The notes under the pieces: generated by a model
Databases searched by the model: none
What the model saw: the letters and a program-made list of their open reading frames with translations, nothing else
What the model was told of the DNA's origin: nothing
Program-made: the position numbers and the translations under genes
Shown here: in pieces, positions 13,924 to 56,889 of the stretch
Position numbering within the stretch: the first letter of the stretch is position 1
How the letters are laid out: each line of letters starts with the position of its first letter
Source of the DNA: an uncultured Clostridia bacterium
GTDB taxonomy: Bacteria; Acidobacteriota; Aminicenantia; UBA2199
DNA: 64,000 bases
Direction of reading: 5' to 3'
NCBI GenBank assembly: GCA_964502145.1
Contig: CAZCVI010000002.1
Coordinates: 117,383-181,382, forward strand

Positions 13924-13950
13924 CTCCTCTAAAGAGCTGAAAAAACTACC

Positions 13951-16970: not shown

Positions 16971-17020
16971 ATACTTATTTTCGTGTACTTATTTTCGTGT
17001 ACTTATTTTGTTGTATTTAT
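16971..17020. repeat. Degenerate 13-14-bp tandem repeat (tacttattttcgtg x ~4) upstream of the kinase gene
   Basis: tacttattttcgtg tacttattttcgtg tacttattttgttg tatttattagtg, read directly from the sequence. Confidence 0.6.
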
Positions 17021-17060
17021 TAGTGTATTTTTCTGTAGAAGAACTTTTACGAGGTGAAAT

Positions 17061-29202: not shown

Positions 29203-29256
29203 TGGGAGGAATGGGAAGTATGGGAATTATGGGAGTTATGGGAAGAATGGGATATT
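29203..29256. repeat. 9-bp tandem repeat array (aatgggaRK x 6). Its reverse complement is the same repeat family found in-frame in the NRPS A domains.
   Basis: aatgggagg aatgggaag tatgggaat tatgggagt tatgggaag aatgggata. The reverse complement contains the 26-nt string actcccataattcccatacttcccat, identical to nt 54118-54143. Confidence 0.8.
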
Positions 29257-29356
29257 TAGAACTATTTCTGAAAACACTGAATTTTATTAAAATAAGCTTG
29301 TAAGATTTTTAAATATTTTATATGATATCAGGGTAAATAATGAATTGGAGGTTGTT

Positions 29357-31173: not shown

Positions 31174-31299
31174 TGCTGTACTTATCCTCCAAAGGGTGAT
31201 GTTGTGTTTTCTTTTTTGTTTTCTTTTTATTATTATTTTATTTTAAACAATAAAAGGTAACGATAGCAAATTATTGGCATAAATGCAAGGAATTTGTGC

Positions 31300-31345
31300 G
31301 GAAAAAAATGTGGACGATATGGACAGTATGGACGATATGGACGAT
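31300..31345. repeat. 9-bp tandem repeat array (tatggacRa x ~5), related to the repeat family at 29203
   Basis: tggacgata tggacagta tggacgata tggacgatg. A further related array (gtccaYatc) lies at 37786-37815. Confidence 0.6.
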
Positions 31346-31358
31346 GGGGATGGTGAAT

Positions 31359-37372: not shown

Positions 37373-37700
37373 GGGGGGGGGCTTAAGTGGTGAAAATATG
37401 TTTCGTCCGTTGGGTTTTTGTAATTATTTATAGAACTGTCTATCTTTTTGTAGAATTATCTATCTTTTTGTAGAATTTTCCTGTTTTTCGTAGAATTTTT
37501 TGGTTTTAGAGACAAATTTCTAATTTCAGTTACAATTTTTTAATAATTTTTAAAAAATTGCGGTTACAGGGACAATTTTTTAAAAATTCCTTGAAAATTG
37601 TAGTGGTGCGGAGAAAATTGTAGCCATGGGGACTTTTTTTTAAATATTTTTGAAAACATGCACCTACAGGTCCAATTTTGTAGGCAGGGAGTTTGTAGGC
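37373..37700. promoter_or_regulatory. Divergent intergenic control region upstream of the NRPS gene: G9 homopolymer and iterated short direct repeats
   Basis: A G9 tract at 37373-37381. tctatctttttgtagaatt x2 (+1 degenerate) at 37434-37500. gaaaattgtag x2 at 37596-37625. tttgtaggcag x2 at 37677-37705. Confidence 0.4.
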
Positions 37701-38070
37701 AGTGTTTACATATTTGGATGGCTATTGTAGATGCGACATCTTGTCGCATTGATAAAGGCATAAAGCAAAATAGATACGGTCCACTTAGTCCATATCGTCC
37801 ACATCGTCCACAACGATTTCAACAATGTGGCGGTGGATTTAGGAAAATAGTGAGGTGTTTGAAAAAATATTACTATGTGGTATAATGCGTGTTGAATCAG
37901 ATTGCTATGATTCTGATATGAATCAGATTGAATTTCAAACACACACACATGTTGATAAGAAAAATGCGTGTCCCATAAGAGGCGGAAGCCTACCTAAATA
38001 TAGTGCCACTGTTTCCAGCACTATTTCAAAACCAATTTCCCAATAATTAAAGGTCTCTCCGGGTGATAAA

Positions 38071-41000: not shown

Positions 41001-44000
41001 ATTGCAAACGATATGGACGAGCGTTTTATTTGGAAACGTGCTTTCAGAAGATTCATCCGCACCACCACCTAAACCCATCGGGATTGATGATAATTTCTTT
41101 CATATGGGCGGACACTCCCTGAAGATCATGAATATGGCAGCTAAAATTCACAAGGAGTTGAACCTGGAAATACCAGTGCAAGAACTATTCACCCATCCCA
41201 CTATCCGGGTTTTGGCCAATTATATAAACACGCGGGAACACACTAAAAATATCACTAAAAATAACTTTGCAGAGATCGCCGCTATTGAAGTAAAAGAATA
41301 CTATCCACTCTCTTCGGCCCAGAAAAGAGTTTATATTTTATACCTCATGGAAACCGATAGCATCAATTACAACATGCACGAGGTATTCCGCCTGGAAGGG
41401 GAACTGGACGTGGGCCGCTTGGAAAAAAGCTTTACCCAATTGATTCGCAGACACGAAAGCTTAAGAACTTCCTTTTTCTTACTCCATGATGAACCGGTCC
41501 AGAAGATTGTGGCCGCCAGTGATGTACCATTCGCCAGCGAATTTTTTGATCCAAACGAAAAAGACACCCTGGTCGAACCTGCCCTAAACGACACCGCGTT
41601 AATGGAAAATACCACTGTTTATGACATCAACCAGCGTTTTTTAAGACCCTTTGATTTGACTCAAGCGCCCCTGTTCCGCGTCGGGCTTATTAAAATCGCC
41701 AAGAACAGCCATATCTTGATGGCAGGAATGCACCATATTATTTCCGATGGCATATCAATTGACCTATTTATCACTGATTTTGTCGCCCTCTACCGTGGCC
41801 AGAACTTACCCCCCTTGCCCATTCAATACAAAGAGTATGCCCACTGGCAGCACCAGAAAAAAGCGCAGGGCGCCTTTAATAGCCAACGCTCCTACTGGTT
41901 GCATGAATTTGCCGGTGAGCTTCCCGTATTAACCATGCCCTATGATTTCCCCAGGCCAGCCGTGCAGAGTTTTGCCGGCGACAAATATTATTTTAACCTC
42001 CCCGCATACGAAACCAAAACGTTAATAAAACGGTGCCAGGAAGAAGCGGTGACTCTTTTTATGATGCTCAGCGCTATCTATTATGTGATGCTGTGGAAAC
42101 TGAGCGGTGCCGAAGAGATCGTGGTGGGAAGCCCCACGGCTGGACGCAGACACGCTGATCTGGAATCCATTTTAGGAATGTTTGTCAACACCCTGGCAGT
42201 AAAAACCAGCCCTGCCAAGGAAACACGCTTCAAACCCTTTTTGGCACAAGTCAAACAAAAGAACCTGGCAGCTTTTGAAAACCAGGAGTACCAATTTGAT
42301 GATCTGGTGGAGGAACTATTACCCGCACGGGATTTAGGTCGCAACCCGTTATTCGACATGATGTTCATCTTGCAAAATATGACCGGCACAACTAACACGG
42401 CGATAAATATTCCGGGCTTAAAAATAACCCGCCTTCCTTTTGAAACGCATATCGCGCCTTTTGATTTTTACCTCATGGCTGAAGAACGACAGGAGTCTAT
42501 CTATTTTACCGTGGGTTATTGCACCAAATTGTTTACGCTGGAAACCGTGCGTCGGTTCATGGGGTATTACCGAGAAATTCTGGCCACAGTGGTCACCCAA
42601 CCCGAGGTGGAACTGGCACGTATAGACATATTATCCCCGGCAGAGAAACGCCAATTAGTGCAGGAATTTAATAATACCCAACGACCGTACCCACAGGGTC
42701 AAACCATTCCGCAATGGTTTGCAGAGCAGGCCGCACGAACCCCAGAAGCCATTGCCGTGGTAGGGGAGGGGGTCATCACCTATCGGGAATTAAATCAACG
42801 GGCCAATCAATTGGCCCACCTGTTGCGACAAAAAGGAGTGGCCCCAGATACCATTGTTGCCCTCTTTATGTTTCGTTCTATCCAGATGGTTGTTGGTATC
42901 CTCGGCATATTAAAAGCGGGCGGCGCTTATTTGCCGATCAACCCCGTGTATCCTGGGCAACGTGTGTTGTCTATCCTGGAAGATAGCGGTGGCAATTATT
43001 TTATAAGCGATGAAAAAACATCCCGCCCTCTTTCTTTTACCGGTTTACAGCGTTTGGATGTGCCCGAAGTGACGCCCCTGGTTACAGCCAAACGACCCCA
43101 GATCACAAATTTTGATAGCTTGCCCCATCCCGATCGTACATTGATTGATTACAGCAAATATCATCGTTATATTGGTATTGCACCCGCCAAATACACCGTC
43201 AGTATCCAGGCCACTCGCGGCTGCCCGTATCAATGTGCCTACTGCCATAAAATATGGCCCAAAACACATGTCATGCGGCGGGCTGAAGATATATTCGCCG
43301 AGATTAGCGCCTGCTATCAGGCGGGGGTGAAACGATTTGTATTTATCGACGATGTCTTCAACCTCAATAAAAAGAACAGCGGCCAATTATTTCAAACCCT
43401 GATCGACCACCACTATGATGTGCAGCTCTTTTTTCCCAACGGGTTACGCGGCGATATCCTGACCCCCGATTTTATTGACCTCATGATTGAAGCAGGCACT
43501 GTTAATATTGATCTGGCCCTGGAAACGGCCTCGCCCCGCTTGCAGAAACTGATCAATAAACAATTGAACCTGGAAAAATTCGCGGCCAACGTCCATTATA
43601 TCACCCAGAAACATCCCCATGTCGTGTTGGAGATGGAGATGATGATTGGCTTTCCCACGGAAACGGAAGCGGAAGCTTTACAAACCCTGGAATTATTGCA
43701 GAGTTTTAAATGGGTCCATTTCCCCAACCTGAATATCCTCAAAATTTATCCCAATACTGACATGGCCCAACTGGCAATTGAAAACGGGGTCAGTCGTAAA
43801 TTGATTCATTCCTCCACCACCCTTGCATTCCATGAGTTGCCAGAAACACTCCCTTTTTCAAAAGATTTTGTCCGGGAGTATCAGGCACGCTTTACCAACC
43901 AGTATTTTCTTTCCCAGGAACGGTTGCGCCATGTATTAAAACAGCAGGTCAAGAGCTTCACCGCCGATGAGCTCGTGCAAAAGTACGACAGTTATTTACC

Positions 44001-47000
44001 CGTGGAGATCAAGTCTTTTGCCGATATTCTCAAGTGTGCTGACATCTCCAGCGCTGCATTGGGGCCCATTGAATTTATTCCCGAAGCCCGCTTTGCCGCT
44101 CCCGATTTTAACCAGCGGATCAAGGCTTTTTTCCCCTCCCGCCCCAGCTCGGAAAATGCTTTTCGTCTCTTGTTTCTTGACCTGTCGCAATCCTTTCGCG
44201 CCGATATGGGCCATACCCTTTACGATGTCGGAGCCGAACCCTTGGGGTTGATGTATCTCGCCTCCTATCTCCAAGAACAACTCGGCCCACACGTTCGGGT
44301 CAAAGTGTTGAAGTCGCGCATTGATTTTGATAGTTATGCCCAATTGCAAGAACAGATCACGTTGTTCCAGCCCCATTTAATTGGTCTGCGCACCCTATCC
44401 TTGTACAAGGATTTTTTTCATCGCACTGTTTCCCTGTTGCGGCAATGGGGCATTACCGCGCCTATTATTGCTGGTGGACCCTATGCCACCAGCGATTACA
44501 AACAAATGCTCCAGGACCCACACATCCATCTCGCCGTGCTGGGAGAAGGAGAAGCCACTACCCTCCATCTGGTTAAAGAGATGATGACCAAAAACAATAC
44601 CTGGCCCGCCGACGACGTATTGGAAACCATTCCCGGTCTCGCCTTTATTCGCCAATCAGAGCGAATGTTAACCACCGCCCCCCAGCGGCAGGTGCTCTTG
44701 TTGGACCAGATTTCTGGTCCATTGGCCCACTTTCCCACCACCAATCCCCAGAACGTCAATCACCCCGGTGATTTGCTATATTTGATCTCCACTTCCGGGT
44801 CTACCGGGAAACCCAAGAGCGTGATGGTCGAGCATCGCACCCTGGTTAATTTGCTGCATTTTCAATTCCATCATACAGCCATCCATTTTTCCCGTGTCTT
44901 GCAATTTGCCGCCATCGGGTTTGATGTCTCCGTGCAAGAGATTTTTTCTGCCTTACTCGCCGGTGGCACTTTATATCTTCCTGACGAAGATATGAAAAGC
45001 GATGTGCCCCGGTTGTTCCAGTTTATCCAGCAGAACCAGATCGAAATTCTGTTTCTGCCTCCTGCATTTTTGAATTTTGTTTTTTCTGACCCCGACTATA
45101 TCCCATTATTTCCCGACTGTGTGCGCCATATTATAGCTGCTGGCGAACAATTGATCGTGAACGAGGCGTTACGATTGTTCCTGAAGCAGCGGCACGTGTA
45201 TCTCCATAATCATTATGGCCCCTCTGAGACCCATGTTGTCACCACCTTGACCATGGATCCCACCCAGGAAATCCCCCATTTCCCCGGTATTGGCAGCCCC
45301 GTATCCAACACCGGCATTTATATCTTGGATAGCCAAAGCAATCTTTTGCCCCTGGGTGTTAGCGGCGAATTAAACATTGGCGGTATCCAGGTCGGGCGTG
45401 GTTATTTGGGTAATGTGGCGTTGACTGCCGAGAAGTTTGTGCCGAATCCCTTTGTCCCCGGTGATCGCTTGTATCGCACCGGTGATATGGCCCGATGGTG
45501 GTCAAATGGGAGTATTCAGTTCTTGGGACGCTTGGATTTCCAGATCAAAATCAGGGGTTTTCGTATTGAACCCGGTGAAATCGAGGGACAATTAAAAAAA
45601 CACCCGGATATTAAAGAAACAATTGTCCTGGCTCTGGCAGATAATAAGGGCGAGCTCTATCTGGTGGCTTATGTAGTGTTACAGCCGCAGACTACCATGC
45701 CCCTCTTACGGGAATTTTTATTGAACCGATTGCCGGATTATATGGTTCCCGCCCATTTTATCCCTCTGGCACGAATTCCCTTGAACGCCAGCGGGAAAGT
45801 CGACCGTCATGCGTTACCACCACCGGAAAATACACCGGGAAACGGGCATGTAGCACCACGGGACCCCATGGAAAAAAAATTGGCCGCTATCTGGTGTACC
45901 GTGTTGGGGAAAGATGTTGCCCAAGATACAGTCAGTATTGATGATAATTTTTTTCAAATGGGTGGGCACTCCTTAAAAGCCACCGCCCTCACCTCCAGGC
46001 TAGCCAAAGAGTTTCATGTTAAAGTGCCCCTCGTGGAGATTTTTAAAGAGCCCACCATCCGGGGCCTTTCCGGTTATATTGCCCATTCTATGGTGGAGCA
46101 ATACGCTGGCATAACTCCTGTAGAAGAGCAGGAATACTACCCCTTATCGTCAGCGCAGAAACGATTGCACTTTTTACAACAAATGGATAAAGCGGGAACC
46201 ACCTATCATCTGACTAGTAACTGGCTGTTGGAAGGTGTTGTCGCTAAAAACCACCTGGAACAATCGCTGCTAAAACTGCTACAACGCCATGAGAGTTTAC
46301 GCACTTCCTTTGATATCATAGCCGAAGAACCCGTGCAAATCATCCACCCGAAATTAGCATTTGTTATTGAAGATGAACATGCTACCATGGATTCTTTCCT
46401 GCGTCCATTTGCATTATCACATGCCCCGTTGCTGCGCGTCGGATTGGTAAAAATAGCAGCCGAAAAGTTTCTCTTACTCGTGGATATGCATCATATTATT
46501 TCCGATGGGTTGTCCATGGATATTCTGAGCCGTGAATTCACCGCTCTTTTGGCAGGCGTAGAACTCCCCCCATTACGTCTCCAATACAAGGATTATGCCG
46601 CGTGGCAGAGTTCTGAAAAAGAGAGCCCCCACTTCCGTCAACAAGAATTATTTTGGCAGCAAGAGTTTAGCGGCGCCATACCCGTGCTCGATTTGCCCGT
46701 TGATTATAGCAGACCACCCGTTCAAAGTTTCGCCGGGGCATCACTTCCTTTTGCCCTATCTCGTGATAGCGTTGTTTCCTTGCAAGCCATAGCAGTAGAA
46801 GCCAGTGCCACAATGTACATGGTGCTGCTCACATGTTATACTATCTTTTTAGCTAAAATGAGCAACCAGGAAGATATTGTCATTGGCACACCCATTGCCG
46901 GTCGCAGGCATGCAGACCTGGAGAAAATTATCGGGATGTTTGTCAACACATTGGTGTTGCGGAACTATCCGGTAGCGGAGAAAAAATTCAGCGATTTCCT

Positions 47001-50000
47001 GGCTGAGGTCAAAGAGAGAACATTAAAAGCATTTGAAAACCAGGAGTACCCGTATGAAGATTTGGTAGACAAAGTCACGATCACCCGTGACGTCTGTCGC
47101 AATCCCTTATTTGATACCATGTTTGTATTGCAAAATGCCACCCCACCACCCGTGGACATTCCCGGCTTAAAAATAGCGCCCGTGCCGCAGGAAAACAAAA
47201 CCGCCAAATTTGATCTGACTCTAACAGCAGTGGAAACCCCGGAAAAAATAGAATTGAACTTCGAGTACTGTACTAAATTATTTAAAAAGGAATCCATCCA
47301 CCGGTTTATCACCTATTTTACCAATATCATCGACTCCGTTCTGGCAGACCCCTTCATTGTCTTGGGTCAGATTCCCCTGCTCTCCCCAGCACAACGAGAG
47401 CAACTGCTGGTGGAGATCAACGCACCCGCCATCCGCTATCCTAATTTCAAGACCATTCAGGGTTTATTCGCCGAGCAGGTCAAAAAAACGCCGGATCGGC
47501 CAGCACTAACCGGTATCAGGTATGATCAAGCAGAAACTCACCTGACTTACCGGCAATTGGACCAGCTTTCCCGACAGTTGGCCCACCAGTTAACGGGTAG
47601 GGGATTGGGTCCTAACAAGCGAGCAGCCATAATGGTAGGCCGAAACGTGGAAATGATTATTGCCATTCTTGGAATTATTCAGGCCGGGGCCGCGTATGTT
47701 CCCTTGGACCCCCAGGCCCCTGTCGAACGATTGCACTATGTATTGGCTGATTGTGGCGCAGAATTATTATTAACCTTCCGCCCATTGGCTGCACGATTGG
47801 CTCCCGCCATAGATACACTTTACCTGGAAGAGTTTACCACCCTCCCTGCCACCCCTCCCGATGCCGTTCTCTCCGGTCATCCTGATGATCTCGCCTATAT
47901 TATATATACATCCGGCTCAACCGGTAGGCCCAAAGGTGTTCCTATTTGCCACCGCAATGTATCGCCCTTATTGTTTTGGGGGTATCGGTACTTAGGGATT
48001 TGTCGTCTAGATCGTGTTATCCAGAGTCCCTCCTATTATTTCGACTGGTCTGTCTGGGAGATATTTATTACCCTTACCAGCGGGGCCCATTTGGTAATGA
48101 TTAGCGAGGAGCTTGTACTTGATCCCCCGGCGTTGGTGGAATTTATCCGGCAGCACGCCATTACCACCCTGCACATCACCCCCACCCAGTTAAGTTATCT
48201 CGTGAATAGCAGACGCCCTATGCTCTCGTTGCACCATCTCTGTATTGGCGCCGAGAAATTAACCTATGATCTTGTAGCCCGTGCTCTTCCCCTGCTTGCA
48301 ACCGATTGCCGGATTTACAATATGTACGGTCCCACCGAAGCCACCATCATTTCCGCTGTGGCCGAGATTGACCGTGAGCAAATTCCGTTCTATCTCAAAC
48401 TGCCCAGTATCCCTATTGGTCACACCATCGCCAATACCACCCTGTTCGTATTGGATCATTCTATGAACCCCTGTCCCATCCATGTTGTTGGTGAACTGTA
48501 CATTGCCGGGGATGCCTTGGCCCGTGGTTATCTCAATGATCCAGAAAAGACCGTAGCCAGTTTCGTCACCAATCCCTTTGCCGAGATTTGCGGTCCCTAC
48601 CTCTACAAAACCGGTGATCGCGTTCGTCGCCTGGAGGATGGCAGCATTCTCTTTTTAGGTCGCGCCGATGATCAGGTAAAAATACGCGGCTATCGCATCG
48701 AGTTGGGGGAAATTGAGAACTGGCTGCTACACTATCCACACGTCAAAGATGCTCTCGTGCTGGTCAAAGCGGATCATCTACAGGAGAAATATTTATGTGC
48801 CTATGTGGCGTGTCCCATTGAATTGGATACCGCCGAATTAAGGGATTTCCTCGCCGCCAGACTTCCCGCCTATATGATCCCCGCCCATTTTATCACGCTT
48901 GAACATATGCCCCTCAACCCCAATGGCAAAGTCGATAAAAAACGCCTGCCCCTCCCTGAAATGCAAACAAGCCCACAAGTCGTCGCCCCCAAAAACGATC
49001 TGGAAAAAACCATCCTCTCTATCTGGCAAGACGTACTTGGACTCGACCACGTAGGCACCACGGATAATTATTTTGAACGGGGTGGCAATTCCATGAATAT
49101 CGTTAAAGTCAGTCACCGTTTAAAAAGTGTATTGAACCGCGATATCCCCGTGATGGACCTGTTCCGTTACCCCACCATCAAAACCCTGGCCGCTTACCTC
49201 AACCAGAGCCCCGGCCATGTCCCTTTCACCCCGTCGGAGATAGGGGAGTCCCTCCTACTTAATCAACCCGAAATACCCCGACATGAGAGTGTTTCTACCA
49301 CTCCCGCGATTGCCGTGATTGGTATGGCCGGAAGGTTGCCCGGTGCGAACACTATTTCCGCATTCTGGAACAATCTCAAGCATGGTGTCGAATCCATTGC
49401 TTTTTTCTCCCCCGCAGAATTCGCAGACAACGGGGGTGATCCCCGGTCCGTGAACCTGCCCAATTATGTTAAAACCCGCTGTGACTTGCAAGATATCCAG
49501 TATTTTGACAGTTCATTTTTTGGGTACACCCCCGTGGAAGCCGAAATAATAGACCCCCAGATGCGCCTATTTCATGAATGTGTCTGGGAAGCTTTTGAAG
49601 ATGCCGGTTATGAGTCCGGTTCTTATGCCGGTCGTATCGGGCTTTATTCCGGTGGGGAATCCAGTTCTTTCTGGGAAACATTAACCTCTTTATCCCAGAT
49701 TGGTCAGTTGATGAATCCCTTGATTCTGGGCAATTTAAATAATAAAGATTACCTCAGTTCCCGTATTGCCTATAAATTTAATTTACGCGGGCCATCCGTC
49801 ACCATGAACACCGCTTGTTCCACCTCACTTGTCGCCATTCATTTTGCTGTTCAGGGTTTGCTCAACCGCGAGTGTGAGATCGCCCTGGCCGGTGGCGTGC
49901 GGGTCATGCTGCCCGGAAAAACCGGCTATCTCTATCAAGAGGGTATGATTCAATCCCCAGATGGTCATTGCCGTGCCTTTGATGCCAGGGCCAATGGCAC

Positions 50001-53000
50001 CGTGGGTGGCGATGGCGTCGGTGTTGTAGTCTTAAAAACTCTGGCACGGGCCCAGGTGGATGGCGATCATATTTATGCTGTCATCAAAGGTTCTGCCATT
50101 AATAATGATGGTATTGGCAAAGTAGGTTACCATGCCCCCAGCATCAATGGTCAGGCTGCCGCCATTCGCGCCGCGTGTGCCAATGCTGCCATTGATCCCG
50201 GTAGTATCGGTTATATTGAAACCCATGGGACCGGCACCCAGTTGGGGGACACCGTGGAGATAGAGGCATTAAAACTCGTTTTTAACGCCCTCGTCTTGCC
50301 CCAGCATAAAAATACCTGCGCTATCGGGTCAGTCAAAACCAATTTTGGTCACCTGGGCAGTGCCGCCGGGGTGGCTGGATTCATTAAGACCGTATTGACC
50401 TTAAAACACCGCCTCATTCCACCCAGCTTGCACTTTGAACGCCCCAACCCGAAGATTGATTTTGAAAACAGCCCCTTTTACGTCAACACCCAATTAACCC
50501 CGTGGCCCTCCACCCTTCTTCCCGCGCGGGCCAGTGTCAGTTCCTTTGGCATAGGCGGCACCAACGCCCATATTATTTTGGAAGCCGTGGCCCCTACCAG
50601 CCCCGCATTCCCCGCCAGCGCCCGTCCCGATCAATTGCTATTATTATCCGCCCGCACCCCCGCTGCCCTGCACACCATGTCCGTCAATCTGCTGGAGTAT
50701 TTAAAAGAAAACCCGGTGCTTTCCCTGGCCGATGTGGCCTACACCTTGCAAGTGGGCAGAAAGCGTATGGCAATCAGGAGAAAGCTGGTATGTTCCACTT
50801 CCGCCCAGGTGATTGACCAGCTTGCTGCTTCCGGGCCCGCCCATGTCGGCGCTTACACCGCCTTGGTCGCCGATGAAGATAGGAAAGTTATATTTATGTT
50901 CCCTGGTCTTGGTGCGCAGCACGTTAATATGGGGCGCGGGCTTTATCACACCGAACCCATCTTCCGCGATGTGATGGACCGTTGTTTTGCTATATTAAAA
51001 GACCTGTACCCCGTGGACATAAAAGAAATTCTGTACCCTGCCGGGGAAATCTCGCCGGCATCAAACAGCCAATTCCACTCCTTTGAAGTCGAGCAACTCG
51101 TGTTGTTTGTGTTTGAATATGCCTTGGCCAGACTCATTTTGTCGTGGGGCATTCAGCCCCATGCCATGATCGGTTACAGTTTTGGCGAGTATGTGGCCGC
51201 CTGTTTAGCCGGGGTGTTTCGCTTGCAGGATATCTTAAAGTTGCTGGTCGTCCGTGGGCGGCTCATTTCCCAGCTTCCCGCCGGTGCCATGTTAAGTGTT
51301 CCCCTGCCAGTGGAAGCCGTGCAGCCTTTTCTTCCCGCCGAATTATCCATCGCCATAGACAACCGTTCCTCCTGCGTAGTTTCCGGGCCCGCCCAGGCCG
51401 TGGCTTCCTTTGCTCAGCAGATGAAAGCCAAGAAGCTCTTGTGTCCGCCCTTTGAATCCCCCTTTGCCGCGCATTCGTCGCAGTTGGACCCCATATTGGC
51501 GGAGTTTCACAAGGAAGTCGCTACAATTTCCCTCCAGACCCCGCAAATACCCTATATTTCAACCTGTACTGGCACATGGATCACTGTTGCCGACGCGCAG
51601 TCCCCAGAGTATTGGGTCAAACAACTCAGGTCCACCGTTTATTTTGTCCGCGGTATTCATCAGATTATAGAAGGGGTCTCCCCGGTATTTCTAGAAATGG
51701 GCCCCGGACGCGACATGAGTGCCCTGGTGAACCGTGAGATCACCGCTAAAACCGGCATACAGACCATGAACCTCCTCCGTCATCGCGGTTCCTTAAAAGA
51801 GCGCACCGATGAAGATTACTTGCTGGATAAAATCGGTCGCTTATGGTTGTATGGCGTGAATATAGACTGGCAAGCCTATCATTCCGGCCAGAGACGAAGT
51901 CGTCTCTCATTGCCTACCTATCCCTTTGAGAAAAAGCGGGCCTGGAAAATTATGGAAAATTATCACGCCGGTCAATATTCCTATCTACCCGGCGCCCCCG
52001 GTGCGCCAGAGAGTTCGCACCCGGCCCAAGGAACACCTCTGGCAGAAACACCGGGTGATCATTGGACACAAGAGCCCCCCCATCTCGAATGGAATGCTAG
52101 GCCGCAACTTTCCACCTCATATGTCGCTCCCCGCGATGAGGTGCAACAAGTCCTGCTTGATATCTGGCAGCATTTTTTTGGTATTCAAGAGATCGGTATC
52201 ACCGATGATTTTTTTGAATTGGGTGGCGATTCATTAAAAGCCACCACCCTGTTATCCACCCTGCACAAGGAAGCCAATATACTCGTCCCCCTCACTTATT
52301 TCTTCGATAATCCTACCATTGAAAAAATCGCCGCTTATGCCATAACCAGTGAAAATGACGCAGACCCAGGCGAAAAAGAGTTCCATGCCATCCAACTTTT
52401 GGAACAGAAAGAGTATTACCCCCTCTCTTCCGCGCAAAAGCGCATGACCTTTTTTCAGCAGTTGGACCAGACCAGTATCGGATACAACCTGGTGCTGGCA
52501 AACACCATCCAGGGCAATCTGGATACCCTAAAACTGGCCGCCATATTCACCAAACTAAGCGCACGGCACGAGATTTTGCGTACCTCTATTGAAGAGATAC
52601 AGGGTGAAACCGTCCAAAGAATTCATCCACATATTGCTGCCACACTGATCACCGGTCATGGAGAGTCCCCCGAAGTATTTATCGCCCAGTTCATCCGTCC
52701 CTTTGATTTAGCCCGTGCCCCCCTCATGCGGGTCGGGTTGTTGTCTATGGCCGAGCAGCAGTATTTATTAATCGTCGACATGCATCATATCATCTCTGAT
52801 GGCACGTCATTGGCCGTATTGATCGGAGAGTTTTTGGCTCTGTATCAGGAAAAAGAGTTGCCTGTTCTGTTGTTGCAGTATAAAGATTACGCTGTCTGGC
52901 AGAACCAGGAAATGGCCGGTGGGTTGTTTGTTTCGCAGCGGGATTACTGGATAAAGACATTTGCCGGTGAAGTTCCCGTGCTTGAATTGCCTTATGATTG

Positions 53001-56000
53001 TATCAGGCCGTTGGATCGCACCTATGCTGGCGATCTGTTGGCCTTTGAAATTGATCGTGCAGAGACTTCGGCGTTAAATCATTTCGCCAGTCAGCAGGGG
53101 GTCACATTGTACATGGTGTTGCTCTGCTTAACCACTATCCTTTTAGCCAAGTTAAGTGGTCAGGAAACCGTGGTCGTAGGAACTCCCATTGCCGGTCGTA
53201 CCCATGCGGACCTGGGCCGGATTATCGGCATGTTTGTCAATACCCTGGCCATGAAGAATGAACCCAATGGCCAAAAAACTATCCAGGAATTTTTAAAGGA
53301 AGTCAAAGAAAACACCTTGAGTGCTTTTGCCAACCAGAACTACCAGTATGAAGAACTGGTCGAGCACCTGCCCATAGATCGCAGTCTAGGCCATAACCCC
53401 TTGTTTGACACCCTGTTGGTCTTGCAAAACATGGCTCTGCCCAATATCAATATTCCCGAATTGACCTTAACACCCTATCCGTATCATACCGGTTTGGTAA
53501 ATTTTGATTTGACTTTCCTGTGTGTTGAAACCCCAGCTACCCTCTCGTTCACCCTTGAATACAGTACAGAACTCTTTAAAAAAGAAACCGCCCAACGCTT
53601 TATCGGTTTTTTCAAAAAGATATTAACCACCGTATTGGCGCACCCCGAAGGAAAAATATCCCAGATCGAGATAATATCCCAGCCAGAAAAAACCCAGATT
53701 TTATATGATTTCAACAACACCACCGTTACATACCCGGCCAACCAAACCCTTCCCCAATTATTTTCCGACCAAGCCGCACGAACCCCAGACCATATCGCCA
53801 TTATTGGTCCCACCCTGGCTCTAACCCACTGCCAATTAACCTACTCCCAATTAAACGAAGCATCCAATCGCCTCGCCCATTGGTTACTTTCCACTGGCGT
53901 CCGTCCCAATACCATCGTCGCCATCATGATCGAACGTTCCATTGAATTGATCATCGGCATTATCGGCATATTAGAATCCGGTGCCGCCTATCTTCCCATC
54001 GATCCCCAATACCCCGAGGAGCGAAAACAATATATACTAGCAGACAGCAATACAACCCTCATCCTAACCCAACACTCCATCCAACAAGCCATTCCCATCA
54101 CTCCCATCACTCCCAACACTCCCATAATTCCCATACTTCCCATCACTCCCATAAATCTCGCCTATATCATCTACACTTCCGGTTCCACCGGCAGACCCAA
54201 GGGCGTCATGGTAGACCATCACAGCATCGCCAACACCTTGTATTACCGCTGCCAGGAATATCGTATCGTGCCCAGTGATCGTGTACTCCAATTGTTTTCC
54301 TTTGCTTTTGATGGATTTCTCACCTCTTGTTTTACCCCCCTGCTTTCTGGCGCATCTGTCGTGCAGTTAAGCCAGGAGGACATAAAAGATATCTTCCGTA
54401 TCAAAGAGATGATTGTCGCCCAACGAATCACCCACTTTATCGCTGTCCCGTCCCTGTACCGCTCTTTATTGGAAGTCGCCACTGCCCTTGAGTTATCCCA
54501 CCTAAAAATCGTAACCCTTGCCGGTGAGCAGGTGCCCCCCGACCTCGTGGTAAAAAGTAAGTCTTTAAACCCCTTGTTGGAATTGGTCAATGAGTACGGT
54601 CCCACCGAGAGCAGTGTCCTGACCTCCATACACAGAAACCTCGAACCCGGTGCCATTATTTCCATCGGTAAACCCATAGCCAATACCCGGATTTATATTC
54701 TTGATCAAGATGATCATGTTGCCCCCATCGGGTTACCCGGTCAACTCGTTATATCTGGTCTTGGTTTGGCCCGCGGGTATCTCAATAATCCCCAACTCAC
54801 CGCCGCTACATTTTTCTCTTTAGCCCATTCAGCCACCTTCGCCACCCTCTCACCAAAACTCTATAAGAGCGGTGATTTGGCCCGCTGGTTGCCAGATGGA
54901 AACATAGAGTTCCTCGGTCGCATTGATCAGCAGGTTAAAATCCGTGGCTTCCGTATTGAATTGGGCGAGATCGAAAACCAACTGCTTCGCCATCCCCAGA
55001 TCAAAGAGGCAGTAGTGGATGTTAGAACCGAAAACAGCGGCGATCACTATTTATGCGCTTATATTGTCACCCAGGGCGAATGGGACATCTCCCAGGCAAG
55101 AGAATATCTGGCCAAGACCTTACCCGATTACATGATTCCCGCGCATTTTGTCGCCTTGGAGAAAATCCCCTTGTCCCCCACTGGCAAGATTCTACGTTCA
55201 GCCTTACCCCAACCGCAATTAAAAAGCGCGGCCCAGTACGTGCCCCCCCGCAATGACATAGAACAACAATTGGTAGAGATATGGACCGAGATTTTGGGCA
55301 GTGATCCATTGTTTGCCTCTTTTTTACATCCCTCTATAGGCATTGATGATAACTTTTTCCATCTCGGTGGGCACTCCTTAAAAGCCATGACCATGGTCAC
55401 CAAGCTCCATAAAGCCCTAAATGTTAAAGTGCCCTTGGTGGAAGTCTTTAAAACCTTGACCATCAGGAAACTGGCCGCCTATATTTTAGGTTTAAAAAAA
55501 GAGTTATACACCGCCATCCAACCCGCTGAAACCAGAGAGTATTATGACTTATCCTCTGCCCAGCGCCGGTTTTATATCTTGCAGCAAATGGAGCTGGACA
55601 GTTTTGCCTACAACAATTTTTCCGTCATGGTTTTGGACGGATTATTTGATAAAGAGAAATTTGGCCACGCGTTAAACCAATTGATCGCCAGACATGACAG
55701 TTTAAGAACCTCTTTTGAATTAATCGGAGGTGAACCTTTCCAAAAGATACATCAACAAGTAGTCGCGGAAATCGCTTATTTTGATTTCACCCCTCCCGGA
55801 AAAAGTCAGCTCTTAGAATCCACCATCCAACATTTTAACCGTCCTTTTGATTTATCTCATGCCCCCTTGCTCAGGTTCGGCATTATTCTCGTGGAGCAGC
55901 AAAAATCCTTGTTGCTGTTAAGCCTCCACCATATCATCAGTGACGGCACATCCATCGGCACCTTTATGAACGAGTTAATTTATTTATACCTGGGCCGAGA

Positions 56001-56889
56001 ACTCCCACCCCTGCGATTGCAATATCACGATTTCTCCCAGTGGCAAAAAAACCTCCTGGTTTCCGGGGCATTAAAGACCCAGGAAGAATACTGGTTAAAA
56101 GTTTTTGCCGGGGAACTGCCCGTTCTTGAAATGCCCACCGATTACCCCAGACCAGCCGTGCAAAGTTTTGCCGGTCACAGTATCGATTTCTTTCTGGAGG
56201 AAGATGTCGCCCGGCAGTTGGAAACCCTGGTGAAAGAAACTGGCACCACGTTATATATTTTGTTATTGGCCCTGTACAGTATCTTGTTAAGCAAATTTAC
56301 CGGGCAGAAAGACATCATCATCGGCTCTCCTATTGCCGGGCGCAACCACGCTGATTTAGAAGGGCTGATCGGGTTATTCATTGAGACCATCGTGATCCGC
56401 TGTTTTCCCCTCGGAGATAAACCCTTTTTGGAATTCTTGGCAGAGGTGAAAAGCAATACCTTTAATGCCTATGAGAACCAGGGTTATCCCTTCGGGGAAT
56501 TATTAAAGCACGTGGGCACCCAGCAGTGGGATGGCAGTCGGAACCCCTTGTTTGATGCCATGTTAATTGTTCAGAATGTCACCCAGGATTTTAAAGTGAT
56601 GTTATTGGAAGATGTAAAGATCAGCCCTTATGTGGCCAGTGACCACCGGGTCTCTAAAATGGATATTACCCTGGAGGTCATCGAAGCCCCCGGCAGAATT
56701 CATTGTAACCTGGAATACTGTACCGCGCTATTCACACACGAGACCATGGCAGCCTTTATCGCTTCTTTTCAGAAAATCGTGGCCATTGTTTTAGAAAATA
56801 ATAACATAAGATTGCAAGACATCCAATTGTCCCATGAATTAAAAGGTGCCACCGCCTCTATTTACGATGACGCCGAAATAGAGTTTTAA
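38071..56889 (+). CDS. Hybrid NRPS-PKS megasynthetase (6272 aa): C-A-T-C-A(rSAM/B12-interrupted)-T-C-A-T-KS-AT-ACP-C-A-T-C
   Basis: A GGTGA RBS. Condensation domains have HHxxxDG at 38503, 41737, 46492, 52789 and 55927. A-domain motifs YTSGTTGKPKG are at 39903, 44783, 47908 and 54172, with PxGKxDR ends. T-domain motifs GGHSL/GGNSM are at 41104, 45961, 49081 and 55366. KS motifs are NTACSTSL (49807), HGTGT and NFGH. AT has GYSFGE (51171). ACP has GGDSL (52222). The protein ends in a C domain. Confidence 0.9.
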   Translation: MSQLERKKIADILMLTHLQEGILFHYLQEPKSAQYFEQLSLEISGEINLELFKTAWHTVIQTNEMLRTVFRWEKMEKPTQIILKEHTCDITFYDLTDEATNRQKSRLQEIKDKDKQTPFDLQEVPMRIMLCKLGTHDYEMIISNHHIIYDGWSNGIILKEFFRAYYGLSAGKPALLPDKPSFKEFIKWLQNEDKYEKDKQKAFWRDYLAGLDGQTELPLKNIKNRKNTGSKQVEHYSLVLEPELKERLEAFAKTKRFTLAGVFYTVWGLLLHQYCNSQDVLFGTTVAGRSARIKGIEEMVGLFINTIPLRIQTTPGEKMVAVVSGVDHALQARELFENTPLLDIRNYSGLSGYVSLFDTLVVIENYPLDSRLLPEESGLSVHAFTIAEMTHYDLTVGIVLFNEIAVTFSYNPELFAQEMIAHLAGHFLSLVQMIIENGEQDICAIEIISPEEKHRVLYEFNNTAAEYPSNKTIPQLFMEQSARTPDYIALIWEKSGACHISYAELNELSNRLAYWLQTEGIRPDTIVAIMVNRSIEMIVGLMGILKAGAAYLPINPEYPAERIQFMLQDSTAKIVLTEPIIQATTSHIPIPPIIPIIPIPPITPSNLAYVIYTSGTTGKPKGVLVEHQNAVNVVCWLGRKYQLNPDTHIILMSDYTFDASIDQIFGALLHGASLYIASKEFMLDMDALRHYINKNRINFINFVPLVLNELLGYREKLPSLNTVISGAERLDDTIKDNILKRGYHLYNHYGPTETTVETLVFTCTDAPVYLGKPIANTKIYILDQWEHIVPIGVPGELYIAGAGLARGYLNRSDLTAEKFVATPHGVENDPVSRTYRTGDLGCWLPDGNIAFLGRIDQQVKIRGFRVELGEIEAQLRTFPEIKQVVVSAKEDNRGDKTLCAYIVSRQLSTGPTAPLDPAVLTTYLAGILPDYMIPAYYVQLAEIPLLPNGKVDRKNLPEPVFIATQAYQEPRHELDRRLQTIWTSVLFGNVLSEDSSAPPPKPIGIDDNFFHMGGHSLKIMNMAAKIHKELNLEIPVQELFTHPTIRVLANYINTREHTKNITKNNFAEIAAIEVKEYYPLSSAQKRVYILYLMETDSINYNMHEVFRLEGELDVGRLEKSFTQLIRRHESLRTSFFLLHDEPVQKIVAASDVPFASEFFDPNEKDTLVEPALNDTALMENTTVYDINQRFLRPFDLTQAPLFRVGLIKIAKNSHILMAGMHHIISDGISIDLFITDFVALYRGQNLPPLPIQYKEYAHWQHQKKAQGAFNSQRSYWLHEFAGELPVLTMPYDFPRPAVQSFAGDKYYFNLPAYETKTLIKRCQEEAVTLFMMLSAIYYVMLWKLSGAEEIVVGSPTAGRRHADLESILGMFVNTLAVKTSPAKETRFKPFLAQVKQKNLAAFENQEYQFDDLVEELLPARDLGRNPLFDMMFILQNMTGTTNTAINIPGLKITRLPFETHIAPFDFYLMAEERQESIYFTVGYCTKLFTLETVRRFMGYYREILATVVTQPEVELARIDILSPAEKRQLVQEFNNTQRPYPQGQTIPQWFAEQAARTPEAIAVVGEGVITYRELNQRANQLAHLLRQKGVAPDTIVALFMFRSIQMVVGILGILKAGGAYLPINPVYPGQRVLSILEDSGGNYFISDEKTSRPLSFTGLQRLDVPEVTPLVTAKRPQITNFDSLPHPDRTLIDYSKYHRYIGIAPAKYTVSIQATRGCPYQCAYCHKIWPKTHVMRRAEDIFAEISACYQAGVKRFVFIDDVFNLNKKNSGQLFQTLIDHHYDVQLFFPNGLRGDILTPDFIDLMIEAGTVNIDLALETASPRLQKLINKQLNLEKFAANVHYITQKHPHVVLEMEMMIGFPTETEAEALQTLELLQSFKWVHFPNLNILKIYPNTDMAQLAIENGVSRKLIHSSTTLAFHELPETLPFSKDFVREYQARFTNQYFLSQERLRHVLKQQVKSFTADELVQKYDSYLPVEIKSFADILKCADISSAALGPIEFIPEARFAAPDFNQRIKAFFPSRPSSENAFRLLFLDLSQSFRADMGHTLYDVGAEPLGLMYLASYLQEQLGPHVRVKVLKSRIDFDSYAQLQEQITLFQPHLIGLRTLSLYKDFFHRTVSLLRQWGITAPIIAGGPYATSDYKQMLQDPHIHLAVLGEGEATTLHLVKEMMTKNNTWPADDVLETIPGLAFIRQSERMLTTAPQRQVLLLDQISGPLAHFPTTNPQNVNHPGDLLYLISTSGSTGKPKSVMVEHRTLVNLLHFQFHHTAIHFSRVLQFAAIGFDVSVQEIFSALLAGGTLYLPDEDMKSDVPRLFQFIQQNQIEILFLPPAFLNFVFSDPDYIPLFPDCVRHIIAAGEQLIVNEALRLFLKQRHVYLHNHYGPSETHVVTTLTMDPTQEIPHFPGIGSPVSNTGIYILDSQSNLLPLGVSGELNIGGIQVGRGYLGNVALTAEKFVPNPFVPGDRLYRTGDMARWWSNGSIQFLGRLDFQIKIRGFRIEPGEIEGQLKKHPDIKETIVLALADNKGELYLVAYVVLQPQTTMPLLREFLLNRLPDYMVPAHFIPLARIPLNASGKVDRHALPPPENTPGNGHVAPRDPMEKKLAAIWCTVLGKDVAQDTVSIDDNFFQMGGHSLKATALTSRLAKEFHVKVPLVEIFKEPTIRGLSGYIAHSMVEQYAGITPVEEQEYYPLSSAQKRLHFLQQMDKAGTTYHLTSNWLLEGVVAKNHLEQSLLKLLQRHESLRTSFDIIAEEPVQIIHPKLAFVIEDEHATMDSFLRPFALSHAPLLRVGLVKIAAEKFLLLVDMHHIISDGLSMDILSREFTALLAGVELPPLRLQYKDYAAWQSSEKESPHFRQQELFWQQEFSGAIPVLDLPVDYSRPPVQSFAGASLPFALSRDSVVSLQAIAVEASATMYMVLLTCYTIFLAKMSNQEDIVIGTPIAGRRHADLEKIIGMFVNTLVLRNYPVAEKKFSDFLAEVKERTLKAFENQEYPYEDLVDKVTITRDVCRNPLFDTMFVLQNATPPPVDIPGLKIAPVPQENKTAKFDLTLTAVETPEKIELNFEYCTKLFKKESIHRFITYFTNIIDSVLADPFIVLGQIPLLSPAQREQLLVEINAPAIRYPNFKTIQGLFAEQVKKTPDRPALTGIRYDQAETHLTYRQLDQLSRQLAHQLTGRGLGPNKRAAIMVGRNVEMIIAILGIIQAGAAYVPLDPQAPVERLHYVLADCGAELLLTFRPLAARLAPAIDTLYLEEFTTLPATPPDAVLSGHPDDLAYIIYTSGSTGRPKGVPICHRNVSPLLFWGYRYLGICRLDRVIQSPSYYFDWSVWEIFITLTSGAHLVMISEELVLDPPALVEFIRQHAITTLHITPTQLSYLVNSRRPMLSLHHLCIGAEKLTYDLVARALPLLATDCRIYNMYGPTEATIISAVAEIDREQIPFYLKLPSIPIGHTIANTTLFVLDHSMNPCPIHVVGELYIAGDALARGYLNDPEKTVASFVTNPFAEICGPYLYKTGDRVRRLEDGSILFLGRADDQVKIRGYRIELGEIENWLLHYPHVKDALVLVKADHLQEKYLCAYVACPIELDTAELRDFLAARLPAYMIPAHFITLEHMPLNPNGKVDKKRLPLPEMQTSPQVVAPKNDLEKTILSIWQDVLGLDHVGTTDNYFERGGNSMNIVKVSHRLKSVLNRDIPVMDLFRYPTIKTLAAYLNQSPGHVPFTPSEIGESLLLNQPEIPRHESVSTTPAIAVIGMAGRLPGANTISAFWNNLKHGVESIAFFSPAEFADNGGDPRSVNLPNYVKTRCDLQDIQYFDSSFFGYTPVEAEIIDPQMRLFHECVWEAFEDAGYESGSYAGRIGLYSGGESSSFWETLTSLSQIGQLMNPLILGNLNNKDYLSSRIAYKFNLRGPSVTMNTACSTSLVAIHFAVQGLLNRECEIALAGGVRVMLPGKTGYLYQEGMIQSPDGHCRAFDARANGTVGGDGVGVVVLKTLARAQVDGDHIYAVIKGSAINNDGIGKVGYHAPSINGQAAAIRAACANAAIDPGSIGYIETHGTGTQLGDTVEIEALKLVFNALVLPQHKNTCAIGSVKTNFGHLGSAAGVAGFIKTVLTLKHRLIPPSLHFERPNPKIDFENSPFYVNTQLTPWPSTLLPARASVSSFGIGGTNAHIILEAVAPTSPAFPASARPDQLLLLSARTPAALHTMSVNLLEYLKENPVLSLADVAYTLQVGRKRMAIRRKLVCSTSAQVIDQLAASGPAHVGAYTALVADEDRKVIFMFPGLGAQHVNMGRGLYHTEPIFRDVMDRCFAILKDLYPVDIKEILYPAGEISPASNSQFHSFEVEQLVLFVFEYALARLILSWGIQPHAMIGYSFGEYVAACLAGVFRLQDILKLLVVRGRLISQLPAGAMLSVPLPVEAVQPFLPAELSIAIDNRSSCVVSGPAQAVASFAQQMKAKKLLCPPFESPFAAHSSQLDPILAEFHKEVATISLQTPQIPYISTCTGTWITVADAQSPEYWVKQLRSTVYFVRGIHQIIEGVSPVFLEMGPGRDMSALVNREITAKTGIQTMNLLRHRGSLKERTDEDYLLDKIGRLWLYGVNIDWQAYHSGQRRSRLSLPTYPFEKKRAWKIMENYHAGQYSYLPGAPGAPESSHPAQGTPLAETPGDHWTQEPPHLEWNARPQLSTSYVAPRDEVQQVLLDIWQHFFGIQEIGITDDFFELGGDSLKATTLLSTLHKEANILVPLTYFFDNPTIEKIAAYAITSENDADPGEKEFHAIQLLEQKEYYPLSSAQKRMTFFQQLDQTSIGYNLVLANTIQGNLDTLKLAAIFTKLSARHEILRTSIEEIQGETVQRIHPHIAATLITGHGESPEVFIAQFIRPFDLARAPLMRVGLLSMAEQQYLLIVDMHHIISDGTSLAVLIGEFLALYQEKELPVLLLQYKDYAVWQNQEMAGGLFVSQRDYWIKTFAGEVPVLELPYDCIRPLDRTYAGDLLAFEIDRAETSALNHFASQQGVTLYMVLLCLTTILLAKLSGQETVVVGTPIAGRTHADLGRIIGMFVNTLAMKNEPNGQKTIQEFLKEVKENTLSAFANQNYQYEELVEHLPIDRSLGHNPLFDTLLVLQNMALPNINIPELTLTPYPYHTGLVNFDLTFLCVETPATLSFTLEYSTELFKKETAQRFIGFFKKILTTVLAHPEGKISQIEIISQPEKTQILYDFNNTTVTYPANQTLPQLFSDQAARTPDHIAIIGPTLALTHCQLTYSQLNEASNRLAHWLLSTGVRPNTIVAIMIERSIELIIGIIGILESGAAYLPIDPQYPEERKQYILADSNTTLILTQHSIQQAIPITPITPNTPIIPILPITPINLAYIIYTSGSTGRPKGVMVDHHSIANTLYYRCQEYRIVPSDRVLQLFSFAFDGFLTSCFTPLLSGASVVQLSQEDIKDIFRIKEMIVAQRITHFIAVPSLYRSLLEVATALELSHLKIVTLAGEQVPPDLVVKSKSLNPLLELVNEYGPTESSVLTSIHRNLEPGAIISIGKPIANTRIYILDQDDHVAPIGLPGQLVISGLGLARGYLNNPQLTAATFFSLAHSATFATLSPKLYKSGDLARWLPDGNIEFLGRIDQQVKIRGFRIELGEIENQLLRHPQIKEAVVDVRTENSGDHYLCAYIVTQGEWDISQAREYLAKTLPDYMIPAHFVALEKIPLSPTGKILRSALPQPQLKSAAQYVPPRNDIEQQLVEIWTEILGSDPLFASFLHPSIGIDDNFFHLGGHSLKAMTMVTKLHKALNVKVPLVEVFKTLTIRKLAAYILGLKKELYTAIQPAETREYYDLSSAQRRFYILQQMELDSFAYNNFSVMVLDGLFDKEKFGHALNQLIARHDSLRTSFELIGGEPFQKIHQQVVAEIAYFDFTPPGKSQLLESTIQHFNRPFDLSHAPLLRFGIILVEQQKSLLLLSLHHIISDGTSIGTFMNELIYLYLGRELPPLRLQYHDFSQWQKNLLVSGALKTQEEYWLKVFAGELPVLEMPTDYPRPAVQSFAGHSIDFFLEEDVARQLETLVKETGTTLYILLLALYSILLSKFTGQKDIIIGSPIAGRNHADLEGLIGLFIETIVIRCFPLGDKPFLEFLAEVKSNTFNAYENQGYPFGELLKHVGTQQWDGSRNPLFDAMLIVQNVTQDFKVMLLEDVKISPYVASDHRVSKMDITLEVIEAPGRIHCNLEYCTALFTHETMAAFIASFQKIVAIVLENNNIRLQDIQLSHELKGATASIYDDAEIEF
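43010..44760 (+). other. Insert within the module-2 A domain (between core motifs A2 and A3): radical SAM core followed by a cobalamin-binding-like domain
   Basis: A2 LKAGGAYLPIN at 42910-42945. Then TRGCPYQCAYCHK (CxxxCxxC, 43222-43245) with GVKRFVFIDD / NIDLALETAS rSAM-like elements. Then LLFLDLSQ...YLASYL...PHLIGLRTLS...APIIAGGPYATS...LAVLGEGE (44465-44552). Then A3 LISTSGSTGKPKS at 44783. Confidence 0.7.
49304..52340 (+). other. Embedded PKS module KS-AT-ACP within gene 1
   Basis: KS 49304-~50590, AT ~50880-51790 and ACP ~52150-52340. Confidence 0.85.

Follow-up and report, generated by a model that had tools for sequence, protein, structure and literature searches.

How does one and the same short tandem repeat come to lie both between genes and, in frame, in the middle of catalytic domains? 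This question is raised by a 64-kb stretch of contig CAZCVI010000002.1 (64,000 nucleotides, referred to as the window), which contains a hybrid nonribosomal peptide synthetase (NRPS) and polyketide synthase (PKS) gene with four adenylation (A) domains, A1 to A4. A preliminary description of the window had placed in-frame 9-nt arrays between core motifs a2 and a3 of A1 and A4, and the reverse complement of the same unit in intergenic DNA downstream of a radical S-adenosylmethionine (rSAM) gene. Tandem Repeats Finder (TRF), the sequence and its translation agree on the two coding arrays, and the intergenic array, at 29201-29255, is indeed the reverse complement of the unit. Here we find that the repeat is a DNA-level unit common to coding and non-coding sites. 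On balance, we consider it probable that this tandem repeat is resident in the genome and that its translation yields a disordered connector, carried as a tolerated passenger in a permissive loop.

The unit, TCCCATNNN, repeats with a period of 9 in 5.8-6.7 copies per array by TRF. The A1 array holds 6.6 copies and has a 27-nt higher-order period with 92% match, and the A4 array holds 6.7 copies. In the NRPS frame, the A1 array reads ...TSH IPIPPIIPIIPIPPITPS NLAYVIYTSGTTG and the A4 array ...QQA IPITPITPNTPIIPILPITPI NLAYIIYTSGSTG. Each of the two arrays amounts to 19-21 residues of low-complexity coil. The non-coding array starts within the TAA stop codon of the rSAM/SPASM gene. Matches to a two-unit pattern, TCCCATNNNTCCCAT, number 13 over the whole window, where 0.02 would be expected by chance, and all of them fall within these three arrays. 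Together with the TRF copies, this excess identifies them as head-to-tail short tandem repeats. They are neither palindromes nor hairpins, as no inverted repeat is present and the minimum free energy (MFE) of both coding arrays is 0 kcal/mol. Palindromes of the repetitive extragenic palindrome or bacterial interspersed mosaic element (REP/BIME) type with conserved spacers were not seen around the window arrays. In all, this unit forms three arrays in the 64-kb window, two of them coding and one intergenic, and a second nonamer forms two more, both intergenic.

Across the 17 in-register units, the hexamer TCCCAT is invariant at 101 of 102 positions, and the triplet that follows it takes eight forms, in which G is never present. 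In the NRPS frame, the hexamer covers the last position of one codon, a whole Pro codon and the first two positions of an Ile codon. Pro in the arrays is encoded by CCC in 13 of 15 codons, and Thr by ACT in all five, compared with 15% in the remainder of the gene. The codon of the variable residue always ends in T, a base found at 26% of third positions overall. Third-position identity between A1 and A4 falls from 0.7-0.8 in the array to 0.45-0.65 in the flanking sequence and to about 0.3 past a3, and thus peaks within the arrays although the proteins are 47% identical. The invariant hexamer, the G-free triplets and the fixed synonymous positions define the unit at the level of DNA, as had been proposed. 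These patterns are not explained by protein-level selection for a Pro/Ile linker. A 26-nt string, ACTCCCATAATTCCCATACTTCCCAT, is an exact match between 54118-54143 and the 29201-29255 array, again as first described. The probability of this identity is 0.008 under shuffling of unit order, 0.11 with the pooled triplet repertoire and 3e-4 with uniform triplets, and given the common unit, we regard it as only moderately informative.

Adenine mutagenesis of the type performed by diversity-generating retroelements was considered as the origin of the triplet variation and was rejected because the A within CAT never varies. Separately, GC skew between 24000 and 64000 is linked to the strand of the genes, with C exceeding G on the coding strand throughout. 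The skew is +0.2 to +0.27 over the minus-strand genes (24-38 kb) and -0.07 to -0.2 over the plus-strand genes (38-64 kb), and the G-free TCCCAT orientation agrees with the coding-strand bias of the NRPS.

The NRPS product is 6259 aa long as called in public assemblies. The exact protein is on record as a singleton cluster, and no copy-number variant of it is on record. In both A1 and A4, motifs a2 and a3 are 56 aa apart, compared with a median of 68 in 97 homologues. The arrays had first been read as insertions added to the loop. The spacing points instead to a replacement of the usual strand-loop segment by the Pro/Ile array, with no net lengthening of the loop. Aligned to the solved A domain of LgrA, the A1 array pairs with the loop HDPDSYSENTNNLPHVN, and A1 has a gap of about 9 residues that covers the strand CDIIDV ahead of a3. 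In an AlphaFold2 model of A1, built from a 78-sequence alignment, mean pLDDT is 91 and pTM 0.90. The array, residues 111-133 of the model, is the sole low-confidence stretch in the core (block-mean pLDDT 53 and 63, below 50 at 115-118) and is modelled as coil. The array is thus predicted to be disordered in this surface loop.

The Pfam matches to Radical_SAM and B12-binding in A2 fall between its motifs a2 and a3, which places this insert in the same inter-motif region as the arrays of A1 and A4, as the preliminary description had noted. A2 is a true interrupted A domain. A1 and A4 are not, with no Pfam domain in their 56-aa loops. Both a2-a3 and a6-a7 are published interruption sites, at which methyltransferase domains are embedded in A domains (PMC8341866). 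The earlier view of a2-a3 as permissive is thus borne out by the low-confidence coil, the A2 insert and the literature. The rSAM/B12 interruption of A2 is absent from the families of M domains (methyltransferases) catalogued in PMC8341866, where "radical SAM" is not mentioned.

The repeat had also been said to have colonised this loop of the A domains. We compared 39481-41040 (A1) with 53734-55290 (A4). From a1 to a2, no two of the four A domains resemble each other more than A1 and A4 (58% identity in amino acids, 68% in nucleotides, 51% at third positions), and A1 and A2 follow. In the specificity-conferring stretch past a3, every pair of A domains is equally and fully diverged. Because the a1-a3 segments of A1 and A4 are mutually closest, a single acquisition in an ancestral a1-a3 segment, followed by duplication or gene conversion within the gene, fits equally well and by sequence comparison appears as likely as two acquisitions. 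Nucleotide identity between A1 and A4 falls from about 0.8 to about 0.4 within some 10-20 codons past a3, a drop that fits a boundary of recombination or sub-domain exchange just downstream of the arrays.

The S46 peptidase adjoining the NRPS has its best named relatives in metagenome-assembled genomes (MAGs) of Candidatus Aminicenantes, at 58-66% identity. By this one protein, the window probably comes from an Aminicenantes-like member of the Acidobacteriota. The nearest A-domain homologues do not exceed 53% identity. Their a2-a3 loops are filled with other sequences, and they include a "short-loop" subset with low-complexity loops. At the DNA level, five related A-domain genes have other 6-, 7- or 9-nt arrays in this loop, and two of the five also have them in a6-a7, which extends the idea of an insertion-tolerant loop beyond the window. 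The units of one of them, in contig L255, fall within the loose nonamer family to which the window units also belong. Across homologues, the a2-a3 site has no conserved peptide. Also in L255 (GCA_975906015.1), an array of (ACCCATAGG)x3.9 occupies 918-952, where the A-domain frame stops, to restart 85 nt on (1027-1533). This array may have split or inactivated the NRPS gene, although the contig is short and the break could also stem from faulty sequencing.

Arrays in this lineage also abut gene ends. The 29201 array begins in a stop codon, the 31311 array lies 14 nt past one, and in a syntenic Aminicenantes relative (L253), the spacer between the methyltransferase and APS-kinase genes is occupied from the stop codon onward by four arrays, three of heptamers and one of a decamer. 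The orthologous spacer in the window is the site of the TGGACGATA array. In another Aminicenantes genome, 22 kb at housekeeping genes contain a two-copy 9-mer as their sole 7-10-nt tandem repeat. Judged from these sequences, the lineage appears rich in short tandem arrays, some of which lie in permissive loops of megasynthases.

How, then, could such a repeat have come to occupy the core of two A domains? In the explanation that we prefer, the Pro/Ile-rich stretches would be translated copies of a repeat, TCCCAT plus a variable G-free triplet, that also exists in non-coding DNA. New arrays would form, and existing ones would change, in the DNA itself, through slipped-strand mispairing or unequal recombination, and the 27-nt period in A1 may go back to a block of three units that was duplicated. 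As the unit equals three codons and this strand and frame are free of stops, expansion or contraction would leave the 19-kb frame open. The (P-I-x)n peptide would serve as an unstructured connector between the strand after a2 and the strand bearing a3, having taken the place of the canonical strand-loop segment with no gain in length. Its tolerance would follow from the structural permissiveness of this part of the A-domain surface, and its sequence would have no required function of its own. The same region accommodates the 620-aa rSAM/B12 insert of module 2, as it does the methyltransferase domains of known interrupted A domains. There may have been two acquisitions of the array, or only one, in an ancestral a1-a3 segment of which a copy later passed from module to module.

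Several observations weigh against a tolerated passenger. The 64-kb window has only three TCCCATNNN arrays, on which the earlier idea of an element propagating in this genome is based, and none of about 140 TCCCAT arrays sampled from metagenomes adjoins an a3 motif, so that the unit is rare within A domains. Both coding arrays share strand and frame, and both a2-a3 loops are exactly 56 aa, which leaves room for a degree of selection, either for the peptide or for the length of the loop. Among homologues of at most 53% identity, none proved to be an orthologue without the array, and an insertion or replacement event is therefore inferred, not observed. Separately, queries with the A1 region and the A4 loop turned up no further A domain with a PI-type loop; the proteins retrieved were all short or fragmentary and did not include the query itself, so that long NRPS orthologues may have been missed. 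Finally, strict conservation of the hexamer in the non-coding array runs contrary to the neutral decay of a slippage product and hints at a constraint outside this explanation.

The unit also occurs elsewhere. Genome contigs were scanned with TCCCATNNN x3 and metagenome contigs with TCCCATHMY x4. Among the matches listed are genuine arrays of 3-15 units in MAGs of Planctomycetota, Verrucomicrobiota, Acidobacteriota and Bacteroidales, and in others, as well as in sediment, peat, lake and gut metagenomes. No contig of the source genome is among the matches listed. Some of the matches listed are ordinary Gly/Met-rich coding repeats, and many seem intergenic by a crude heuristic based on open reading frames (ORFs). 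Many also form inverted pairs (seen in L004, L027, L032, L133, L146, L205, L226 and L250), in which an ATGGGA array, a spacer and a TCCCAT array follow one another; the triplets of such pairs are not complementary. Nonamer arrays of the TCCCATNNN type are therefore widespread across phyla. In 1.47 Mb flanking the matches, 46 of 104 further nonamer arrays (44%) have a related core, compared with 10-13% expected, where the related cores (CCCAT, TCCAT, TCCAC, CCTAT, CCCAC, CCCAG) were picked after inspection of the data. Units like those of the second family are contiguous with TCCCAT units in L142 and L158, and the exact unit ATGGACGAT is present in L197. In Rfam, the sole match of the window was a tRNA, and 20 loci with arrays had none. 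The unit strings had no match in literature string searches, and no description of the unit was found in the literature or the Rfam release searched.

One contig deserves separate mention. L142, from the Trout Bog Lake metagenome, carries a mosaic element of about 260 bp in three copies (7370-7612, 8470-8740 and 9640-9850) in successive intergenic regions. Four arrays, [ATGGGK]n [ATGGAC]n [TCCCAT]n [MCCCAT]n, follow one another in it, and the unique spacers between them are conserved. The element forms a long imperfect hairpin (-105 kcal/mol, z=-5.9), and features of the REP/BIME type are seen there. It matched no Rfam family and no string in the literature searches.

The foremost rival casts the array as a functional element of DNA or RNA, in which each ATGGGA/TCCCAT hexamer would be bound by a protein or RNA partner. 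In the NRPS message it would be regulatory, for example as an unstructured, C-rich and G-free stretch that affects polarity or pausing in the 19-kb transcript, and the peptide would be a by-product. A constant hexamer next to a variable 3-nt spacer, found in coding as well as non-coding copies, speaks for this view. The G-free coding arrays are unstructured as RNA, arrays of the unit recur in many phyla and often as inverted pairs, the L142 mosaic keeps its spacers and folds stably, and related cores are in excess near the matches. However, those cores were defined post hoc, and no Rfam family matches. The intergenic copy reads AUGGGA in the sole annotated direction of transcription, while the coding copies read UCCCAU, and the same loops in relatives are filled by unrelated units. 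A general core-plus-spacer architecture was also unsupported in nonamer arrays that were not seeded by pattern, of which 5 of 29 had a contiguous core compared with 3.5 expected, so that the hexamer constraint is demonstrated for the window arrays only. We regard a functional element as unlikely. A broader proposal is that TCCCATNNN and relatives with cores such as GTCCAC/ATGGAC, ACCCAT, CCCCAT and TCCTAT form an undescribed cross-phylum superfamily of nonamers, mobile or held by a conserved binding function. Its members would build hairpin-like mosaics of about 260 bp between genes in some bacteria and would have entered NRPS A-domain loops (before a1, a2-a3 and a6-a7) repeatedly in genomes of the Aminicenantes/Acidobacteria type. 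There they would be translated and might offer homology tracts for the exchange of A-domain segments between modules. This proposal is speculative, and we put it forward as doubtful, if slightly less so than the functional element.

Could the peptide be what is selected? The Pro/Ile stretch may be a stiff hydrophobic spacer required by a clade of short-loop A domains, in which case the intergenic likeness would be coincidental or secondary. Both arrays are in frame to give P-I-x, both loops have the same exact length, and the arrays replace a structural segment rather than add to it. However, synonymous positions are fixed, and the same hexamer and G-free triplets are present in non-coding DNA, with a 26-nt identity. 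The closest homologues carry wholly different low-complexity peptides in the loop, and AlphaFold assigns the segment no structure. We therefore find this explanation improbable.

The comparison of coding with non-coding copies would itself fail if 29201-29255 were coding. This array could be the (MGx)6 core of a 33-aa precursor of a ribosomally synthesized and post-translationally modified peptide (RiPP), translationally coupled to the rSAM/SPASM gene, whose stop codon the ORF overlaps as TAATG. The ORF is called in three assemblies, the variable triplet is codon-aligned in its frame, and the rSAM/SPASM protein fits no specific NCBIfam family. Against this, Gly is always encoded by GGA, the 33-aa ORF has no protein family match, and the arrays of the syntenic relative, made of other units, likewise start at a stop codon and give no such peptide. 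Gene callers also place a comparable ORF, of 32 aa, on the unrelated TGGAC array, as expected for any unit that contains ATG, and on this ground the 33-aa ORF looks like a by-product of gene calling that probably results from the ATG within the unit. On the minus strand, no (S-H-x)n ORF exists across the array. A RiPP precursor is thus very improbable. A run of seven G at 29193-29199 lies right before the stop codon and the array, and slippage by +1 or -1 in this run would add the translated array to the C terminus of the enzyme, as (MGx)n or another repetitive sequence.

That the arrays are artefacts of assembly or sequencing is hardly credible: only the general fragility of repeats in short-read assemblies speaks for it, whereas the A1, 29201, 31311 and 37779 arrays agree in every base across three contigs (two European Nucleotide Archive (ENA) assemblies with k141 names and one from the Joint Genome Institute (JGI)) that derive from one population and are 100% identical to the window over 17-20 kb, which excludes assembly error, every array is under 70 nt and so shorter than a read, and the 6259-aa reading frame is preserved.

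Table 1. Arrays, A-domain motifs and associated reading frames in the window, and arrays in related A-domain genes
Feature	Location	Strand	Details
NRPS/PKS hybrid gene	38110..56889	+	four A domains; Pfam, motif positions, exact protein on record
A1, motif a2 to a3	39712..39924	+	a2 GAAYLPIN (aa 548), a3 LAYVIYTSGTTG (aa 607); spacing 56 aa
A2, motif a2 to a3	42919..44808	+	a2 aa 1617, a3 aa 2241; ~620 aa with Radical_SAM and B12-binding insert (Pfam, motif positions)
A3, motif a2 to a3			a2 aa 3206, a3 aa 3280
A4, motif a2 to a3	53980..54192	+	a2 GAAYLPID (aa 5304), a3 LAYIIYTSGSTG (aa 5363); spacing 56 aa
TCCCATNNN array in A1	39826..39883	+	peptide HIPIPPIIPIIPIPPITPS, (P-I-x)n, immediately ahead of a3 LAYVIYTSGTTG
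TCCCATNNN array in A4	54093..54152	+	peptide IPITPITPNTPIIPILPITPI, same frame as A1, ahead of a3 LAYIIYTSGSTG
Non-coding TCCCATNNN array	29201..29255	-	+ strand reads (ATGGGANNN)6, reverse complement of unit
TGGACGATA x3.9 array	31311..31345	+	intergenic, 14 nt past stop of minus-strand methyltransferase gene
GTCCACATC x3.8 array	37779..37812	-	divergent region upstream of NRPS
33-aa ORF	29202-29303	+	gene callers in three assemblies; begins MGGMGSMGIMGVMGRMGYLELF; lies on 29201 array
32-aa ORF	31283-31381	+	public gene calls; lies on TGGAC array (31311)
P0056 / L128, Aminicenantes	two A domains, a2-a3		(GTGAGTGAG)n then inverted (ACTCACCYT)n, encoding SEVSEV...THPTHL
P0056 / L128, Aminicenantes	a6-a7 loop		inverted heptamer pair
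P0095 / L127, Acidobacteria	a2-a3		(TTCATCA)x4.6, encoding FHHSSFIIHHSS; more arrays before a1 and in a6-a7
P0027 / L254, JGI metagenome contig	a2-a3		(CCTYAA)x5.5, encoding STSTLTSTLT
P0242 / L255, NCBI MAG contig	a2-a3		(ATAGGACCT)x3.4, encoding IGPIGPIGPI

The preliminary description had also listed related 9-bp arrays at 31300-31345 and 37786-37815. These arrays are real, with slightly different limits (Table 1), but their kinship is looser than supposed. Their units, TGGACGATA and GTCCACATC, are reverse complements of each other and differ from TCCCATNNN, and this second family is tied to the first only by a looser core and by co-occurrence in other contigs. DnaA boxes were considered for the TGGAC/GTCCACA family and dropped, as the matches reach only 7-8 of 9 with zero spacing. 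Other repeats lie further off. The divergent region upstream of the NRPS holds A/T-rich 20-nt tandem repeats at 37427-37559 (TTTGTAGAATTTTCTATCTT x3.7 and relatives), and a 14-nt repeat (x3.6) at 16972-17021 lies just upstream of the gene for a 1758-aa Ser/Thr kinase. Both may be promoter-region repeats. At 12079-16215, a RiPP-maturation radical SAM C-methyltransferase (TIGR03975, 437 bits) is encoded beside a fused YcaO cyclodehydratase of the thiazole/oxazole-modified microcin (TOMM) type (TIGR03604 and TIGR03882). These genes constitute a second, ribosomal-peptide pathway upstream of the NRPS.

For NRPS engineering, the arrays amount to a natural linker-scanning experiment that marks the stretch before a3 and, in relatives, the a6-a7 and pre-a1 loops. 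The marked sites tolerate arbitrary low-complexity sequence, even with loss of a canonical strand, and coincide with places where whole tailoring domains are known to be embedded. For genome biology, the locus offers a case in which the short tandem repeats of an uncultured lineage spread beyond intergenic DNA and reach the interior of catalytic domains, with a 9-nt unit that leaves a 19-kb frame intact. It also gives a lead to a widespread class of nonamers with a conserved hexamer, without an Rfam entry and with strings not found in the literature searched.

Among known systems, Rickettsia palindromic elements (RPE), which Ogata et al. reportedly described in 2000, are said to be selfish repeats found in frame in protein-coding genes. 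The likeness is that of a dispersed repeat which lies between genes and in frame within them, translated at a tolerant surface site into a peptide that is added or takes the place of another, while the reading frame stays open. However, RPE are palindromic units of 100-150 bp, whereas the window arrays are tandem 9-nt repeats of a single orientation that cannot fold. The inverted nonamer pairs of the Aminicenantes relative L128 come nearer to RPE, and only there is a palindrome able to form a hairpin seen. Bacterial coding minisatellites, or variable number tandem repeats, typically occur in surface or contingency genes and are demonstrably polymorphic. Like the arrays described here, they have units that are multiples of 3 nt, expand and contract without change of frame, and encode repetitive linkers, but the host in this case is a cytoplasmic megasynthase.

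A further close parallel is offered by the TAACTGA direct repeats, heptamers found in Beggiatoaceae, Cyanobacteria and Bacteroidetes (MacGregor 2015, PMC4679880), to which the short tandemly repeated repetitive (STRR) heptamers of cyanobacteria are comparable. These too are short tandem arrays, mostly intergenic, often over an upstream stop codon and patchy across phyla, and now and then they occur in ORFs, at the periphery of the protein structure. There, however, the unit is an exact heptamer, while here it is 9 nt with a variable triplet and an unrelated sequence. A 9-nt unit is frame-neutral at any copy number, so that arrays become possible in the middle of a catalytic domain. Interrupted A domains (Labby 2015; Lundy et al. 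2020, PMC8341866) use the same sites, a2-a3 as in A1, A4 and A2, and a6-a7 as in the relatives. However, A1 and A4 hold 19-21 residues of coil in place of a domain, and only A2 qualifies. What sets the present arrays apart from all of these analogues is a 9-nt unit with a free triplet that lies in the middle of a catalytic core and replaces a canonical structural segment.

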